Shown: positions 2,024 through 7,411, numbered from the stretch's first letter. The stretch: DNA of 32,000 nt from Candidatus Saccharimonadota bacterium (GCF_000582535.1 NZ_CP006932.1:420001-452000), one strand, 5' to 3'. Notes: a model not told the origin generated them from the sequence alone. A program made the numbers and translations.

Positions 2024-2344
2024 ATGGGAGCAAATATTTCTGCAGACGATCTCAGATTATAATTATTAAAAAATAATTGAAAATATACAGGTAAAACAAA
2101 ACATGAACATTGAATTTATGAAATAGAAAAATGTAAAATTAATTCTCCATTAAGTATAAATTTTAATGTTAAAAAAGGTTCCGGAATTAAAGATTACACA
2201 TTAAAACAAATAAGTAATATAATGAAAATTAGTAAAAATGAATTAATAAATTCAATTAGAGAAAATAAAAGATATACGGAAGAAGAATTAATAAATTTTT
2301 TATTTTCAAAAAGTGATCTTTTAGATTTATATATTTCAAAATAA
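2024..2344 (+). pseudogene. HicA-like mRNA-interferase toxin gene interrupted by an in-frame TAA
   Basis: From ATG 2024 the frame reads MGANISADDLRL-TAA(2060-2062)-LLKNNWKYTGKTKHEHWIYE...VKKGSGIKDYTLKQISNIMKISKNEL, ending at TAA 2342-2344. This loosely follows the HicA pattern (LLxxxGW..xGSHxx...KxLxxGTLxxILKQAGL). No in-frame start follows the TAA until ATG ~2222. Confidence 0.3.
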
Positions 2345-2366
2345 AATTAAATATATAAATATGCTT

Positions 2367-2936
2367 TTACATGCAAACTTTATAAATATATTTATATATT
2401 TTATTATATTTTTCATCTTGAATACTTATTAATGAAAAAGCTTCTGTAAATAAAGCAATATTTAATAATAAAAGAATAAAAAGAATTTCTTTTTTTTCAG
2501 TAATTTTTTTTTGAATTATTTTATGTTTTAACGCATAATCATTAAATTTTAAATTTTTACTAACATAAAAATCATCGATTATTCTCTCGTGATTTTTAAA
2601 TTGTTCAAAAATTAATTTATGATCGAATTTTAATCTTTTAATTTTTTTTACAGAATCTATATATCTTCTTTTTGTAATTGGTGATTTAAAATATGTAATT
2701 AATTTTAAATCTGCTTTTGAATTTATTAATTTTTCTTTATCTAAAATTCCATCAATAAATAAATAAAAATTTTTTAAAATATTTTCCGCAGTTGTTTTTC
2801 TTAAATTAATATTTAAATCTTTTCGATATTTAAAATCTCAGATTGTATAAAAAATACCAATAAAAGCCATTATTGTAGTAAGAATACTAAGTGTTACCAA
2901 AAAAGTTCCACTAATTCAAGCAGCAAAACTATCCAT
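2367..2936 (-). CDS. Membrane protein, tandem paralog A (189 aa; N- and C-terminal TM segments)
   Basis: Not in the ORF track (TGA at 2916 and 2838, and no alternative start after them). I checked codon by codon: ATG 2934-2936 to TAA 2367-2369. Begins MDSFAAWISGTFLVTLSILTTIMAFIGIFYTIW and ends KYIYKVCM. Confidence 0.7.
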
Positions 2937-2950
2937 AAATTTCCCTTAAA

Positions 2951-3520
2951 TTACATACAGATTTTATAAATATATTTATATAATTTATCATATTTTGCAT
3001 TTTTTATTTTAACAATTGGTAAAGTTTCTGTAAATATAGCAACATTCAATAATAAAAGAACAAAAATTATCTCTCTTTTATTTGTAATTTTTTCTTCAAT
3101 AATATTATTTCTTAAAGCATAATCATTGAATTTTAAATTTTTTCTAATATAAAAATCATCTTCTACTTTTTTATAATCTTTAAATTGATTAAAAATTAAT
3201 TTCTGATCAAAATTTAATTTTTTTATTTTTTTAATTGAATCTCGATATTTTCTTCTTGTAATTGGAATTTTAAAATTAGTAAGTAACTTAAAATAAGCAT
3301 CAGATTTAATCATTTCTTGATCATTATCCAAATTCTTCATAAATAAAGAAAAATTTTCAATTATTTCCTCATGTGTTTTTTTTCTTAAATCTATATTGGT
3401 ATCTTTTTTATATTTAAATCCTCAAATTGAAAAAAAAACTCCAACAAAAATCATGATCGAAGATAAAGTACTATAAAATACAAGAAAAACCCCGCCAATC
3501 CAAGCTAAAGCACTATCCAT
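2951..3520 (-). CDS. Membrane protein, tandem paralog B (189 aa)
   Basis: Track ORF 2951-3340 extends upstream through TGA codons to ATG 3518-3520. Begins MDSALAWIGGVFLVFYSTLSSIMIFVGVFFSIW and ends KYIYKICM. Same length as paralog A and collinear with it. Confidence 0.7.
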
Positions 3521-3540
3521 AAAATAACCCCATTAAAATT

Positions 3541-3586
3541 ACCATTTTAAAAACTTCAAAATAAAGTTAAAAACTTTTAAAATGGT
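3541..3586 (-). terminator. 12-bp perfect inverted repeat abutting or overlapping the tRNA 3' end
   Basis: ACCATTTTAAAA (3541-3552) pairs with TTTTAAAATGGT (3575-3586). The right arm includes the tRNA ACCA terminus. The stem is AT-only, so stability and function are uncertain. Confidence 0.3.
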
Positions 3587-3665
3587 GCCCGAAGTGGGAC
3601 TTGAACCCACACAGCAAAGCTAAAGGGTTTTGAATCCTTCGTGTCTACCATTCCACCATTCGGGC
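3583..3665 (-). tRNA. tRNA-Leu (anticodon CAA), class II with a long variable arm and an encoded CCA
   Basis: The reverse complement reads GCCCGAA-TG-GTGG-AATGGTAGA-CACG-AAGGA-TTCAAAA-CCCTT-TAGCTTTGCTGT-GTGGG-TTCAAGT-CCCAC-TTCGGGC-ACCA. The acceptor and T arms are perfect and the anticodon loop is UU-CAA-AA. The 31-39 pair is A/C. Confidence 0.9.
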
Positions 3666-3756
3666 AATTATTAGTAAATACAAATTAAAAACAAATACAT
3701 TATAATATAAATTATAAATTTTTCTTTTTATATTTTCTAGTTAGGGGCTTAAAATA

Positions 3757-4497
3757 ATGGTTTGATGAGGGATTGCCCTATCTGAATTTTTTGGAACTTT
3801 TTTTCTTATTCTTTTAGGATTAGGGATTAATGCCGATTCAACTTTAAAAGGGACTTACATCAAAAATAATAATTGATTATTAGGAAGTTTTGGTTGAGCT
3901 TTTGCATATTTTATCGGTGGATCTATCGCCTATTATTCTGGAGGAAATATAAATCCAATAATTTCACTTTCAGTTTGACTTACTGATCAAATAACATTTG
4001 TTCAGTTTCTTGATTATATTTTCTTTCAAATTTTAGGAGCTTTTTTTGCAATTGTCATTATAAATTTTCTTTATTTAGATCAACTTAAAAAAACAGATGA
4101 TCAAGAAAGAATTGCAAATGTTTTTTATACTATACCAGCAATAAAAGATTATAAATTTAATTTTTTAACAGAAATAATTGCTAGTTTTGTTTTAGTTACT
4201 GCTTTTTTAAGTTCTGTTTGATATGGATTTAATTTTTTTGAACCATTATTCATGGCTCTTGTTGTATTTGCAATTGCTCTATCTCTAGGAGGTCTTACTG
4301 GATATGCAATAAATCCAACAAGAGATCTTATTCCAAGAATTTACCATAGTTTATTTAAAATTCCAAATAAAGGAAAAACTAACTGAAGTTATAGTTGAGT
4401 TCCTACAATTGGACCAATTATAGGTTCATTATTATCTACAGGACTTATTTGAATAATAATAGAAATTATCGGAGAAGGAAACCCATTTAATAATTAA
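3757..4497 (+). CDS. glpF: MIP-family aquaglyceroporin / glycerol uptake facilitator (246 aa)
   Basis: Runs from ATG 3757 to TAA 4495-4497 with many TGA(Trp) codons, so it is absent from the track. Reads MVWWGIALSEFFGTFFLILLGLG...GGNINPIISLS...LTGYAINPTRDLIPR. The protein has six hydrophobic segments and two NPx boxes. Confidence 0.85.
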
Positions 4498-4545
4498 AAA
4501 ATAAAAAAATCAGTCTATATTATTTTAAAATATGTGATAATAATT

Positions 4546-4608
4546 TTGAAGCACATTTAGTTGTGTGGAAAAAACAAAGAATTTTATTGAAGCACATTTA
4601 GTTGTGTG
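4546..4608 (+). repeat. Two perfect 22-bp direct repeats, TTGAAGCACATTTAGTTGTGTG, 41 bp apart
   Basis: Copies lie at 4546-4567 and 4587-4608, immediately 3' of glpF. Each contains a short CACA...TGTG dyad. Confidence 0.9.
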
Positions 4609-5695
4609 AATTTAAAAAATAACTTTTGTTTTCAAATGAAGCAATCATATTATTTGGTTGCTTCATTTTTTTATTTTTATTTTTGGATATTTTAAAATTA
4701 AAAAAATCCTTATAATGGTTTCTTAAAATTTTATTATGAGAAATTAAATTATTTTTTAAAAAAGCTATTTTCATTTTATAAAATACTTCAATTGTATAAT
4801 CATTTTTTAAAAGATCATATTGTCCATAAAAATAATTTAATAGATCTTCAACACAATTTTTATCAATTAATAAATCATTTAAATGAGAAATTTTATTTCT
4901 ATATTGATTAGTTATTTGTAGTCTTGATATAAAATATTCTCATATTTTATTATTTATTTCTTTATCTGAACATAAAGGATATCTTTTTTTAAAAAAAATC
5001 ATTCTTTCATCAACTTTTAATTTATTTATAAAATTCCTTTTTATTAATTCATCTATATTTAAATAATTATTATTTCATAAATATTTTAATATTAATATTT
5101 TTTCGGCAAAATATAATTTATTAATAATTTTTGAATTTTTTAAAAAAATATTTTTTTCTTCTTTAATATCAATATTTTTTTCTTGAATAGATAATATTTT
5201 ATTTTTTAATGAATTTTTAAATTTCATTTCAAAAATATTTAAATATTTGATAATTAATTTACTGTTAATTAAATAATTTATATTTTTTTCAAAGGAAAAA
5301 ATATAAGTATAAATTATAGCTAAAATTTTATCATTTAAAACATCCAAAGAATCAATTAATTTTTTAATTTCTACTTCAAAATTTTTTATTTTTTTTGATT
5401 TATTTTTTTCTAGAATATCATTTATATAATTAGGAAAATTTTTATAAATTCCTACAATTTTTATTGGAGATATATAACCAGATTTAACAATTAGCAAAAA
5501 ATAATAAATTTGAAAAAATTCTAATTTTTTCTTAAAATTATCTATTTTAATATTTTTATAATTTTTATTTAAAATACTATAATTTAGATTATATTTTTCT
5601 GAATATAAAATGTTAATTATTTCTGAATTTGATTTATTAAAAAAATTTTGATATTCTTTATTAAAATTAAATTTATTTTTTTCTTTTTTATTCAT
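4598..5695 (-). CDS. Hypothetical 365-aa protein, AbiD/AbiF (Abi_2)-like with an RxxxxH HEPN-type motif
   Basis: Track ORF 5075-5695 continues through TGA 5075-5077 and 4940-4942 to TAA 4598-4600 (checked codon by codon). It contains KIWEYFISRLQITNQYRNKISHLNDLL, with RNKISH at 4883-4900. Size and motif position resemble lactococcal AbiD/F-type proteins. Confidence 0.4.
4637..4672 (+). terminator. Rho-independent terminator downstream of glpF
   Basis: An 8-bp perfect stem TGAAGCAA (4637-4644) / TTGCTTCA (4658-4665) with a 13-nt loop, followed by T7 (4666-4672). Confidence 0.7.
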
Positions 5696-5750
5696 ATTAA
5701 AATTATTATAAATATAAATAAAAAATGATAATAAAATTTAAATTTTATTA

Positions 5751-6052
5751 TAGTTATTGCTTTTTTAAATTCTATTTGATATTAATTTGATTTTTTTACA
5801 TAATTATTTATGATTTTTTTATTTTTCATTGCTTTATCATTAGGAAGATTTATTGAATATGAAATAAATTCAACAAGAGATCTTATTCCAAGAATTTATA
5901 ATAGTTTATTTAAAATTCCAAATAAAGGAAAAACTAACTGAAGTTATAGTTTTGTTCCTACAATTGGTCCAATTATAGGTTCTTTATTATCTACAGGACT
6001 TATTTGAATAATAATATAAATTATTAGGAAAGGAAATCCATTTAATAATTAA
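5751..6052 (+). pseudogene. Decayed duplicate of the glpF 3' end
   Basis: 5751-6052 is collinear with 4192-4497. From ~5870 onward it is nearly identical (CAACAAGAGATCTTATTCCAAGAATTTA...GGAAAAACTAACTGAAGTTATAGTT) and it becomes progressively degenerate toward the 5' side. NPT is changed to NST, and GAA->TAA creates a premature stop at ~6017. Confidence 0.85.
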
Positions 6053-6116
6053 TATTAAAAAGAATATTTTAAAATTTTTAATATTAATTCAAAATATGAG
6101 AATTTATAATTAATTT

Positions 6117-6125
6117 TGATATACT
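6117..6125 (+). promoter_or_regulatory. Candidate extended -10 promoter (TGaTATACT)
   Basis: TGATATACT lies at 6117-6125. No convincing -35 is present. The AT-rich background makes chance matches likely. Confidence 0.3.
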
Positions 6126-6228
6126 AAATTTAGTTAATTGTTAATTAACTCTACCGATGAAAGATTAGTCTATAATTGTTTAATCTGAAATTGGATAGGA
6201 GCCCTATTGAGGGCTTTATTTGTTTTTT
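6126..6228 (+). ncRNA. Candidate ~100-nt structured RNA or leader with two degenerate ~37-nt repeat units, ending in a terminator
   Basis: Collinear motifs occur twice: TTAGT (6130, 6165), TAATTGTT (6135, 6173), and GATGAAA (6156) / GATAGGA (6194). There is a hairpin AGATTA (6162-6167) / TAATCT (6181-6186). I found no ORF longer than 15 codons. Confidence 0.3.
6198..6228 (+). terminator. Rho-independent terminator upstream of the toxin-like ORF
   Basis: A GC-rich stem AGCCCT (6200-6205) / AGGGCT (6210-6215) with loop ATTG, followed by TTATTTGTTTTTT. Confidence 0.7.
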
Positions 6229-6284
6229 ATCAAATTAAATGGAGTTTTGGGGAAATAATATTATTAATATGGGTGAAAATAAAT

Positions 6285-6677
6285 ATGTATCACATAAAAA
6301 TCTGAAAATTTGATCAATTTATTGATTTAAAAGATCTTGATTATCAGAAAAAAAATCAAAATAAAGGAGATTATAGACCTTGTGTCGTTTTAACTAAAAG
6401 AGAAAATCAATTAGTATTAATACCTTTTTCTACATCTAAAACAAATCCTAAATGAAATATTGAATATAATTCTGCTACTAGAAATAAACCTTCAAATATT
6501 CAAATAGATAGATTTAGAATTTTAGATCCAAAGTCTATAGTTATCGAATCAAAAAACTGTACTCCAGTAGATAATGTAAAATTTAAAAATCAAAATGCAA
6601 AAATATCTTCTAAAAAAATTAAAAAAGAAATAATAAATAAATATAACGAAAGATTAAATTATTTAAATTTAAAATAA
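6285..6677 (+). CDS. Kid/MazF/PemK- or ToxN-like endoribonuclease toxin (130 aa)
   Basis: ATG 6285 follows GGTGA (6272-6276), and the ORF ends at TAA 6675-6677 with two TGA(Trp) codons. Reads MYHIKIWKFDQFIDLKDLDYQKKNQNKGDYRPCVVLTKRENQLVLIPFSTSKTNPKWN...IQIDRFRILDPKSIV. This fits the beta-strand / RP-VVL / PxTSxK / DQxRxxD pattern of these toxin folds. Confidence 0.55.
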
Positions 6678-6679
6678 AA

Positions 6680-6703
6680 AGCACACCCTCTAAGTGATGT
6701 GCT
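6680..6703. terminator. Bidirectional hairpin terminator between convergent units
   Basis: AGCACA (6680-6685) / TGTGCT (6698-6703) with a 12-nt loop. An A-run lies on the left (a T-run for the minus strand) and GTCGTATTTT lies on the right. Confidence 0.5.
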
Positions 6704-6800
6704 GTCGTATTTTCTAAGCTCAATCTCAGAGAGATCTAGATACGATTGCTAAATTAACGAGCTCATATAAAATTATGATGAACACGGGAATATTTTTTCC
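6704..6800. other. Locally GC-enriched, dyad-rich non-coding segment (possible small RNA, strand unclear)
   Basis: It contains nested complementarity: AGCTC (6717-6721) / GAGCT (6761-6765), CAATC (6721-6725) / GATTG (6744-6748) and ATCTC-AGA-GAGAT (6723-6735). It is noticeably richer in G+C than the flanks and has no ORF. Confidence 0.25.
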
Positions 6801-6834
6801 TATAAAAATTATAAATAAATATTTAAATTATGCT

Positions 6835-7411
6835 TTATTTTTTCCTAAATAAAGTAACAAGATATATTTTATCATCATTCAAACTATATGAAAATATAAA
6901 ATTATATTGAATATTTTTTGAAAATTGATTAATTCTAAATATATCTTTAAGAATTATTCTTTTTTGCTTATTTAGTTTCTTAATATAATTTTCTATCTGA
7001 AAATTATTATTTCTATTCAATAAAATTTTTTGAATTTTTTTGTATATTAAATAATACTAATTTCTCATTATAATCTTTATTTAATTTATCCATTTTATAT
7101 TTTCTATAAAAAGATTTATTTAATATTGTCATATGACAATAAATAAATTTCAAATCTTTTATTTTTAATTTTTCATCAATTAAAGAAATTGCTTTATAAT
7201 TAAGATCTCAAATTATTTATTGTATATAATTAATTTATATGTTAGCATTAATAATTTGTTTTCTAGTTTTAATAAATAAAAAAATTCAAGGATGAAAACA
7301 AGCAATAATAATTTCTTTATCTTTTGTTATTTGTAAAATTCTTTTTACTCTTGTTTTTATTTTTCCTCTTTTATTATTTGTAATACTATTTTTTGGTAAA
7401 ACAATTTTTAA
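6835..7411 (-). pseudogene. Block of short, mutually frameshifted ORF fragments; the last (6835-7020) is RelE/ParE-like
   Basis: Three fragments are each closed by TAA or TAG and lack a credible ATG start: 7235-7411, 7013-7216 and 6835-7020(+). The last ends ...NIQYNFIFSYSLNDDKIYLVTLFRKK, reminiscent of the RelE/ParE C-terminus (YRIIYxIxxxxIxIlxIxHR). Confidence 0.3.
7124..7141. promoter_or_regulatory. 18-bp perfect palindrome TATTGTCATATGACAATA (operator-like)
   Basis: The sequence is perfectly self-complementary. It lies ~30 nt upstream of a minus-strand ATG (7091-7093) inside the decayed ORF block. Confidence 0.3.

Follow-up and report, generated by a model that had tools for sequence, protein, structure and literature searches.

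A 1.2-kb module bracketed by an intact aquaporin gene and a two-age copy of its 3′ end in a Candidatus Hepatoplasma crinochetorum genome

We analyzed a 32,000-nt stretch of DNA (NZ_CP006932.1:420001-452000; hereafter the window), assigned to a strain of Candidatus Hepatoplasma crinochetorum, most probably Av or one very near it, an isopod gut symbiont, in which a 1.2-kb module carrying a single gene, here called P, lies between an intact aquaporin gene and a second, 5′-truncated copy of that gene’s 3′ end. Our analysis suggests, with a probability that we put at roughly 50%, that a ~1,555-bp unit was inserted into the 3′ part of the aquaporin gene by the host’s own homologous recombination, in a Campbell-type or ‘ends-in’ event that would involve no element-encoded recombinase. 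Coordinates are positions in the window unless another locus (L001 and so on) is named. The window has a GC content of 22% and reads TGA as a sense codon, so open reading frames (ORFs) were called with genetic code 4 and calls made with table 11 were discarded. Its closest public genome is Ca. H. crinochetorum Tokyo2021 (AP027132.1, L001), which is 97.3% identical to the window over 2216-4503 and 98.7% identical over 7249-17088. The intact gene (3757-4497, + strand, 246 aa under code 4) belongs to the MIP family of aquaporins and glycerol facilitators (Pfam MIP, PF00230, E = 1e-28) and is 97-98.5% identical to its orthologues in Tokyo2021 and in two further assemblies, L013 and L015. The original prediction, which was made from the sequence alone, had named it glpF. 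The published glpF of Hepatoplasma sits in a glpFKA cluster (PMC10928387, Table 5), whereas the gene in the window stands alone; ‘aquaporin/glycerol facilitator paralogue’ is therefore the safer name, shortened below to aquaporin gene.

The last ~104 codons of the aquaporin gene are present twice. The functional 3′ end (copy 1, 4185-4497, + strand), delimited by local and flank-versus-flank alignments, recurs on the same strand at 5743-6052, where everything 5′ of codon ~143 is missing. The two copies form two collinear blocks (4185-4254 with 5743-5812, and 4258-4497 with 5813-6052), between which the second copy carries a 3-bp deletion. This collinearity had been proposed for 5751-6052 and 4192-4497, and the repeat proved to begin ~8 bp further upstream. 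Local alignment of 4100-4520 with 5690-6080 gave a score of 415, compared with 28 ± 4 (maximum 43) for mononucleotide shuffles, and flank-versus-flank alignment of the two copies gave 416 (z about 100). We find it scarcely credible that the duplication is an assembly artefact or a chance similarity: a genome of 22% GC does produce many weak AT-rich matches, but scores of 415-416 against ~30 for shuffles lie about 100 sd above chance, and the identical arrangement occurs in three independently assembled data sets (see below). The second copy is dead. Its reading frame is interrupted by three premature in-frame TAA stops (5783-5785, 5801-5803 and 6017-6019), the last derived from a GAA-to-TAA change, and its NPT motif has become NST through a C-to-T change at 5870. 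The NST and GAA-to-TAA changes had been recognized beforehand, while the other two stops and the 3-bp deletion had been missed. The direct repeats that flank the module are thus an intact gene and a 5′-truncated pseudo-copy, as for integrative elements that reconstitute the 3′ end of their target (e14/icd type). The dead copy also keeps a 69-aa ORF (5810-6019) that begins at a native internal Met codon and is annotated as a gene in L015. Purifying selection on this ORF was considered and rejected, given many radical changes in its first 21 codons, and the ORF is probably non-functional.

The dead copy is made up of two parts of different age. Its proximal part (5743-5870, + strand) differs from the intact copy at 29 positions, 23 of them changes from G or C to A or T, and its distal part (5871-6052, + strand) is ~93% identical to copy 1 (12 differences in 180). 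The pairwise identity profile, far above chance throughout the comparison, is sharply biphasic, with 29 differences at 4189-4315, none at 4316-4343 and 12 at 4344-4482; a diverged proximal and a nearly identical distal part had indeed been described from the outset. When changes were polarized with eight living alleles, changes private to the dead copy numbered about 27 in 123 proximal positions, as against about 6 in 180 distal ones (binomial p = 2e-6). Likewise, 22 of the 37 proximal G/C sites had changed, compared with 8 of 47 distal sites, and the proximal part has reached 14.8% GC, which is the intergenic level, from a living copy with 31%. The distal part resembles a living allele. It differs from the other living alleles at 9-14 of 180 positions, shares a TTT codon (Phe instead of Trp) with the assemblies L013, L014, L016 and L009 (the last, identical to L007, being a contig from a pattern scan of metagenome DNA), shares further variants (T/C/A) with the window’s own gene and L009, and is contiguous with native downstream DNA. 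The original prediction had regarded the whole second copy as the orphaned original 3′ end; this holds for the distal ~180 bp, whereas the proximal ~125 bp are much older and appear to have been carried by the cassette.

A reciprocal boundary is visible in the living gene. Compared with the allele of L013, which lacks the module, the window gene differs at 10 of 180 positions in 4318-4497 and at 5 of 561 elsewhere (Fisher p = 5e-4), and these differences define a divergent recombination patch at 4332-4482. Between the window and L015, which has the same module and dead copy without a single difference, the aquaporin genes differ only within 4285-4440, with eight differing sites within 4332-4440. 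Living alleles as a group are mosaic, and are unusually polymorphic in exactly the distal 180 bp. We considered conversion of the intact copy by the dead copy in the lineage of the window and rejected it, as the intact copy has none of the dead copy’s private variants in the putative tract. Between the last dense difference, at 4315, and the first difference of the patch, at 4332, lies the putative crossover interval CAACAAGAGATCTTAT (4316-4331, + strand; 5871-5886 in the second copy), which comprises the codons of the NPxR box. This box is the best-conserved stretch of the duplicated segment, which makes it the likeliest site of homologous pairing between diverged sequences. A junction near ~5870 had already been suspected from the identity gradient, and the start of the patch in the intact copy, together with the end of decay in the dead copy, provides independent support for it.

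Comparison among strains shows what was added. The occupied arrangement, with an identical dead copy, is present in two further independent assemblies, L002 (a JGI metagenome contig, 99.5% identical) and L015 (an ENA contig with 0 mismatches over 4498-6284), so that with the window three independently assembled data sets agree and the arrangement is not an assembly artefact. Three other independent assemblies of the same species, L013, L014 (Logan) and L016 (ENA soil metagenome), have the intact aquaporin gene and lack both P and the second copy. In these empty sites, the stop codon is followed by the same 35 bp (6053-6087 in the window) and the same element D, a structured RNA candidate described below, that lie 3′ of the window’s dead copy, which is the predicted empty site in which the aquaporin gene runs straight into ~6053 onward. 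A gene for a PemK-like toxin comes after D in L013 and L014, and the L016 contig ends inside D. The flanks of L013 are 98.5-98.6% identical to those of the window, and occupied and empty haplotypes differ in their flanks by only about 1%. The more distant strain Ps (L008, about 77-84% identical) is also without P and without the dead copy; its order is aquaporin gene, single R-like motif (a relative of the module’s repeats, below), terminator-like sequence, D, PemK-like gene, GC-rich element, two small minus-strand genes and rplO. The arrangement is thus not shared by all relatives, and the empty sites together with Ps indicate that window positions 6053-7216 are native to the slot and that 4498 to about 5870 is an addition. 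The addition begins with a spacer after the intact copy’s stop (4498-4536), which is absent from the empty sites and shows a weak likeness to the post-stop region of Ps. In Tokyo2021, the slot holds a 47%-identical allele of P, with its own R-like pair, at another position: this allele follows a decayed D, stands where the PemK-like gene would be and has no duplication beside it. Tokyo2021 and L009 also lack the 35 bp between the aquaporin stop and D; the deletion lies between TTTAATA(A/T)TTAA repeats of 11-12 bp, consistent with slippage. In a genome-contig collection, a search for loci with the aquaporin protein returned none and an exact DNA pattern matched only an unrelated Lachnospiraceae contig, Hepatoplasma being seemingly absent from that collection or masked in it.

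The core module (4537-5742) consists of a promoter-like element, two repeats (R1 and R2), a terminator, P and the region upstream of P. It aligns in one block with Ca. H. scabrum (AP027133.1, L012, 8586-7379; 71.8% over 1231 nt), where it sits between a Ser/Thr kinase gene and an RCC1-like gene, a locus unrelated to the aquaporin slot, and this alignment stops at 5742, one base ahead of the start of the dead copy. R1 (4546-4567, + strand) and R2 (4587-4608, + strand) are exact copies of the 22-nt sequence TTGAAGCACATTTAGTTGTGTG, lie 41 nt apart and have as their core a 5-bp hairpin, CACAU/GUGUG; the stop codon of P falls inside R2 on the opposite strand (...LNSHN, then stop). Upstream of R1 we read an extended -10-like motif, TGTGATAAT (4533-4541, + strand), whose counterparts are TGTAATAAT in Tokyo2021, TATATAAT in H. 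scabrum and TGTATAAT in Ps, so that such a motif precedes R1 in all four lineages compared. An intrinsic terminator (4634-4678, + strand; hairpin 4634-4668) with a 14-bp stem and a T-run lies within the last 30 codons of P and is strong on the + strand only. Between the window and L012, each 22-nt repeat is identical at 20 of 22 positions and both 17-nt cores are exact, compared with identities of 47% for the R1-R2 spacer, 54% for the terminator and 65-80% for P. The RNA from R1 through the terminator (4546-4685) folds with z = -4.15, and base changes in diverged R cores, as read from the sequences, mostly preserve the hairpin pairing. Together, these features suggest that the R-R region may encode a small RNA partner of P. 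The L012 copy of P (7435-8525) is the closest relative of the window’s P and carries one frameshift, which leaves ORFs of 137 aa and 174 aa; both adjoining R cores are intact in this frameshifted copy. A decayed R-like pair, GCATATATAGTTATGTG followed ~40 nt on by CCATATTTAGTTATAT, is also found near the end of rplO at 7461-7516 in the window; it is kept in all in-group strains and may be a relic of an older module.

The 22-bp direct-repeat pair, the terminator and the single minus-strand gene for a 365-aa protein are the contents that the insert was first described to have. No integrase, transposase or terminal inverted repeats were detected in it, its inverted repeats being AT-rich noise and P its sole ORF; the earlier statement that it carries no recognizable integrase or transposase is borne out by searches of Pfam, NCBIfam, PADLOC, PHROGs and PDB sequences. 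Searches of phages and plasmids with blastn and tblastn, and two pattern scans of IMG/VR, gave no real match to the insert. A plasmid blastn match in Ca. Stammera, covering 24% of the query at 67% identity, was judged to be AT-rich chance similarity, and the IMG/VR pattern matches showed no homology to P. A search for the insert in mobile elements had been proposed at the outset; it is absent from these phage, plasmid and IMG/VR records, but it does recur as a unit in the Ca. H. scabrum chromosome.

The wide distribution of R-like sequences bears on the possibility that the module is an old resident of the slot, that the bracketing copy arose by local tandem duplication or unequal exchange followed by deletion, and that the empty sites are derived from occupied ones via the direct repeats. 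R-like sequences occur across the slot in all strains (the Ps motif, the R-like promoter at the start of D and the pair at 7461-7516), and if the Tokyo2021 order gene 3′ end-D-R-R-terminator-P is permuted circularly, the window order R-R-terminator-P-dead copy-D results. Direct repeats of 300 bp would also favor deletion, as in excision between icd and icdC for e14 (PMC13626634). Such a history would take several steps, and it leaves both the two ages of the dead copy and the reciprocal patch unexplained. It also has to contend with the outgroup Ps and three in-group assemblies that lack P and the dead copy, and with a closest relative of the window’s P that resides at another locus in another species. 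Deletion would moreover leave marks of decay (the TAA at 6017 and a His-to-Asn change) in the aquaporin genes of the empty sites, and these are not seen. We therefore regard an old resident as unlikely.

A second bracketed copy was found in Ca. H. vulgare. In L010 (AP027131.1), a second copy of the final ~166 bp of uvrB (7737-7902) is found at 9131-9294, a short way past the P homologue P0129 (alignment score 203, against 41 ± 6 with a maximum of 61 for shuffles). This repeat shows frameshifts and G-to-A/T decay, and here, too, the module-proximal half is the more decayed (77% versus 90% identity, p = 0.03). In L010 it is the 5′ side of P that meets the intact gene end, and in the window it is the 3′ side; with this opposite orientation, proximity to a promoter cannot explain the gradient of decay. 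Hypermutation of the proximal part driven by a promoter or by transcription was rejected on this ground, the uvrB copy being decayed beside the 3′ side of P, and because there is no strand asymmetry. A ~60-nt GC-rich element lies between P0129 and the uvrB pseudo-copy.

Two independent insertions, in different genes and orientations and each bracketed by a duplicated host 3′ end, are also what a self-mobilizing module might leave if P were a new nuclease or recombinase that makes staggered nicks near gene 3′ ends, or that uses R as its site, with the repeats as long target-site duplications. The R cores are far more constrained than the surrounding DNA and travel with P, and P combines a conserved Arg/His motif with the lack of any match to a known fold. 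The repeats, however, differ in length (about 313 bp in the window and about 166 bp in L010) and are missing at six of the eight P loci, so no fixed-length target-site duplication of transposon type is seen. Nor are there terminal inverted repeats; P, predicted to be all-helical, shows no similarity to a recombinase, transposase or nuclease family, and a single event of duplication is at odds with the two ages seen in the dead copy. Self-mobilization is accordingly the least probable of the biological explanations that we weighed, and a very improbable one.

In the sequence of events that we favor, insertion by host homologous recombination, the unit would consist in order of a living distal end (about 4332-4497), the 39-bp spacer, the 1.2-kb module and the decayed proximal fragment (5743-5870). 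A single crossover in the NPxR box (4316-4331, equivalent to 5871-5886) between the chromosomal gene and this unit would join the chromosomal proximal part to the incoming distal end, so that the gene stays intact. The chromosome’s own distal end (5871-6052) would be left behind the module, fused to the travelling decayed arm. That arm would be too diverged to recombine, and would thus remain linked to the module and decay further, while the distal part would be renewed by each exchange of the unit or by gene conversion with living alleles. The module would have come to lie in a small putative toxin island, with the aquaporin gene on one side and the ribosomal-protein operon on the other. The reciprocal boundaries, with decay ending at 4315 and the patch starting at 4332, are as a single crossover predicts, and together with the empty sites and the biphasic profile they support the earlier proposal of recombination through a gene-homologous segment. 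The unit may have entered either as a circle, in the Campbell manner, or as linear DNA of a donor in which the site was occupied.

Several observations weigh against this scheme. No circular form or excision product was observed, which would take raw reads or PCR to reveal. The final arrangement could also be reached through linear DNA or by gene conversion at a later stage. In L015, the module and the dead copy are those of the window, yet the distal end of the intact gene is L013-like, so that at least one extra recombination event is needed. The bracketing duplication is present at only two of eight P loci, the other six being without a repeat, which indicates that duplication is recurrent but not an obligatory signature of P movement. 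The scheme also leaves unexplained how a fragment of a new target gene is first acquired.

Homology-facilitated illegitimate recombination (HFIR) is a possible, though in our view doubtful, alternative. Linear donor DNA with the module downstream of an aquaporin gene would have recombined by homology on the left and by an illegitimate joint at codon ~143, displacing the recipient’s whole 3′ end downstream, and the distal 180 bp of that end would later have been overwritten from a living allele. Two features of such events are present, namely a conserved anchor on one side and a displaced old 3′ end kept downstream, and HFIR-type displacement by which 3′ ends are orphaned has been described in other systems (PMC5361080). 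In Ps, the aquaporin stop is followed at once by a single R-like motif with an extended -10, similar to the stop-to-R junction of the window; this likeness suggests an old ‘gene-then-module’ arrangement that may have served as donor. The module edge at 5742 abuts the start of the dead copy at 5743 with no homology between them, although the joint lies in DNA of about 5% GC, where short matches are uninformative on microhomology. The mosaic alleles show that conversion is frequent here. HFIR nevertheless requires two separate events and turns the match of the 4315 and 4332 boundaries into a coincidence, and the proximal decay would place the displacement before strain diversification, yet occupied and empty flanks differ by only about 1%.

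We also examined what the module encodes. P (4598-5695, - strand) is an orphan 365-aa protein, predicted to be all-helical, whose ORF is intact only under code 4; table 11 splits it at two TGA codons. Databases were queried with the homologue P0002, with stop-free pieces of the window and with relatives. The family is restricted to Hepatoplasmataceae: an exhaustive profile search of 1.84 billion representative proteins found nine clusters only, all rich in K, N and I, and every cluster with a traced source is Hepatoplasma-associated. Neither P nor any relative had a match in Pfam, NCBIfam, PADLOC, PHROGs or PDB sequences, and a Pfam search with all 10 P members at E up to 10 gave nothing relevant and no similarity to a described HEPN or abortive infection (Abi) family. 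An AlphaFold2 (AF2) model of P0002, which is 47% identical to P, was built from 10 sequences and is all-helical, with a predicted local distance difference test (pLDDT) score of 77 and a predicted template modelling (pTM) score of 0.69; a model from three sequences reached a pLDDT of 46 and was unusable. Foldseek comparison of the full-length P0002 model with PDB and BFVD gave nothing at E < 0.4. The ‘defence-like’ label that P had been given thus finds no database support, and the only lead is a HEPN-like RNxxxH motif, R-N-K-I-S-H (Rx4H; aa 266-271, codons at 4883-4900, - strand), in which R, N, I, S, H and the following L are conserved. The stretch Y-R-N-x-I-S-H-L (aa 265-272 in P) is invariant in every family member that covers the region. 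It resembles the Rx4-6H signature of HEPN proteins and makes P no more than a candidate member of that superfamily.

P homologues occur in at least five different genomic contexts. Those of Ca. H. vulgare lie between cbiQ and truA and beside uvrB, and others occupy the uvrA-uvrB interval of Ca. H. scabrum and of two Logan contigs. These multiple contexts indicate that P is a patchy multi-copy gene that has changed its location repeatedly. The distant homologues between uvrA and uvrB are each followed by a ~60-nt GC-rich element (e.g. gatgggctaagtctcgcaatggaccgcccatatgg...; L017 6084-6236, L018 2185-2398 and L019 6510-6651). These elements are unrelated to R in sequence and may be analogous RNA partners.

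With low confidence, we suggest that P and the R-R RNA could form a selfish module of a toxin/RNA type, similar to abortive-infection or addiction systems. What we counted towards this guess is that the family is orphan, patchy and multi-copy, with one copy frameshifted and with extreme allelic divergence; that the RNxISH motif is invariant; that the R cores are conserved at 17 of 17 positions twice, against 47-54% identity in neighboring DNA; and that a PemK-like toxin gene adjoins. Two points tell against such a function: neither sequence searches nor a full-length fold search relate P to a HEPN, Abi or toxin family, and the R-R array lies downstream of P and convergent with it, whereas type III toxin-antitoxin arrays lie upstream. 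More broadly, and more speculatively than the insertion scheme itself, the P/R-R module might be an unrecognized minimal mobile element of reduced Mollicute genomes that spreads within and between Hepatoplasma lineages without a recombinase of its own, by means of a permanent dead target-gene arm and a borrowed living end. The two-age pseudogene would then be a record of repeated integration and excision, and P and the repeat RNA would act together as a novel toxin/RNA-antitoxin-like pair, so that the cassette is not easily lost.

The slot contains further elements that are native to it. D (6088-6230, + strand) is not part of the insert and has a promoter-like TATAAT, a ~110-nt structured RNA and a terminator (6198-6217); it is a three-hairpin RNA candidate (fold z = -3.2) situated directly upstream of the PemK-like gene. 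D is well kept in Ps and in the empty-site strains and decayed in Tokyo2021 and L009, where G/C-to-A/T changes are accompanied by compensatory stem changes. Tokyo2021 has no PemK-like gene, and the short L009 contig ends before the position of that gene. Toward its 5′ end, D is similar to the promoter and the core of R. The PemK/MazF-like toxin gene (6269-6677, + strand; core ORF 6285-6677) matches Pfam PF02452 (E = 2.3e-5, 25.0 bits versus a cut-off of 23.1). Beside it there is no gene for a protein antitoxin, only non-coding D upstream, as is also the case in Ps, L013 and L015, and together D and the PemK-like gene have a layout reminiscent of type III toxin-antitoxin loci. Compared with its counterparts in L013, L015 and Ps, the gene in the window has lost 2 bp from an A-rich run at ~6352. 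Read from the conserved ATG at 6269, the ORF ends after 31 codons; the first ~27 codons are out of frame, and the core reads only from another ATG, at 6285. The toxin may be inactivated in the window strain, or the deletion may be a homopolymer sequencing error.

Downstream, a GC-rich block (6678-6830) with a minus-strand terminator (6703-6680) is conserved above its surroundings between Av-type strains and Ps; it has no Rfam match at E = 1 and a fold z of only -1.75, and it may be an unclassified small RNA. A stretch of 433 bp found in L013 and L015 is missing from the window at about 7210-7215. This deletion takes the 5′ part of a 150-aa minus-strand gene, the whole of a 73-aa gene and the beginning of a 65-aa one. 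Divergence from L013 and L015 is 9% over 6831-7615 and <0.5% in the flanks, which marks this region as a second patch of recombination or decay in the slot. Upstream of the aquaporin gene, two tandem 189-aa minus-strand paralogues (2367-2936 and 2951-3520; ~75% nucleotide identity, hydrophobic N-termini) lie upstream of a tRNA-Leu(CAA) gene (3583-3665) and are kept in all strains examined. This tRNA was the sole match in Rfam scans at gathering and at permissive thresholds.

The Av genome of Ca. H. crinochetorum was described as being without phages, plasmids, transposons, insertion sequences or introns (PMC3942034), and a later comparative paper on Hepatoplasma reported no toxins (PMC10928387). 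The present locus shows that exchange of a small cassette of selfish appearance continues even in a host-restricted Mollicute with a streamlined genome, apparently by host homologous recombination alone, and it offers a testable example of gene movement in genomes without classical mobile-element machinery. It also illustrates how a displaced gene end can go on exchanging with the living gene, making a local hotspot of mosaic alleles. The orphan RNxxSH protein family and the two small structured RNA candidates beside putative toxins are possibly a new type of toxin/antitoxin or defence system in Mollicutes.

Insertion of e14 into icd of Escherichia coli leaves the pseudo-3′ end icdC (PMC13626634, citing Hill et al. 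1989). As with e14, and also phage 21, at icd, the element here would supply its own gene end, the gene stays intact, and the displaced original end is a direct-orientation, 5′-truncated pseudogene; excision of e14 re-fuses the gene with the displaced end and yields chimeric alleles. However, the e14 prophage spans 15 kb, encodes a site-specific integrase and has a short att core, whereas here there are 1.2 kb and homology arms, and neither an integrase or other recombinase nor an att-like core was detected. The crossover here also appears to have been ordinary homologous recombination, one arm is long dead, and in another species the P family accompanies a different host gene, uvrB. Displacement of C-terminal ends in Rhs, contact-dependent inhibition (CDI) and type VI secretion system (T6SS) loci has been attributed to HFIR (PMC5361080, citing Jackson et al. 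2009). The likeness to Rhs and T6SS loci lies in a conserved upstream anchor, the arrival of a new 3′ end together with an adjacent gene, the decay of the old end downstream and polymorphism among strains. In those loci, the displaced tips represent distinct toxin domains and a toxin tip arrives as payload along with its immunity gene, whereas the end displaced here is homologous to the same housekeeping channel gene and the payload is unrelated to that gene. The orphaned end here, unlike theirs, is also a mosaic of two ages, indicating repeated exchange.

Integration of a suicide plasmid that carries the 3′ fragment of a gene by the Campbell route leaves an intact and a 5′-truncated copy flanking the vector, and is RecA-dependent and reversible. 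The predicted product is the same here, and the window would be a natural chromosomal example of this laboratory event in a reduced symbiont genome, although neither a replicon nor a circular form was detected. In the type III toxin-antitoxin loci ToxIN, CptIN and TenpIN, the repeats lie upstream of the toxin gene and in the same orientation. P shares with HEPN RNases and type III systems the R-N-x-x-S-H motif in a helical C-terminal region, the -10-like motif, two ~41-nt repeats and a terminator beside P, and a patchy, multi-copy, fast-evolving distribution; it differs from them in having no sequence, profile or fold match and in the downstream, convergent position of its repeat array. It has long been known that an incoming element can displace the 3′ end of a host gene and supply a substitute. 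What sets the present locus apart is a tiny payload without an integrase, an apparent reliance on a dead homology arm that stays linked for good, and a two-age pseudogene with a hotspot of mosaic alleles, in a reduced genome reported to be without mobile elements (PMC3942034).

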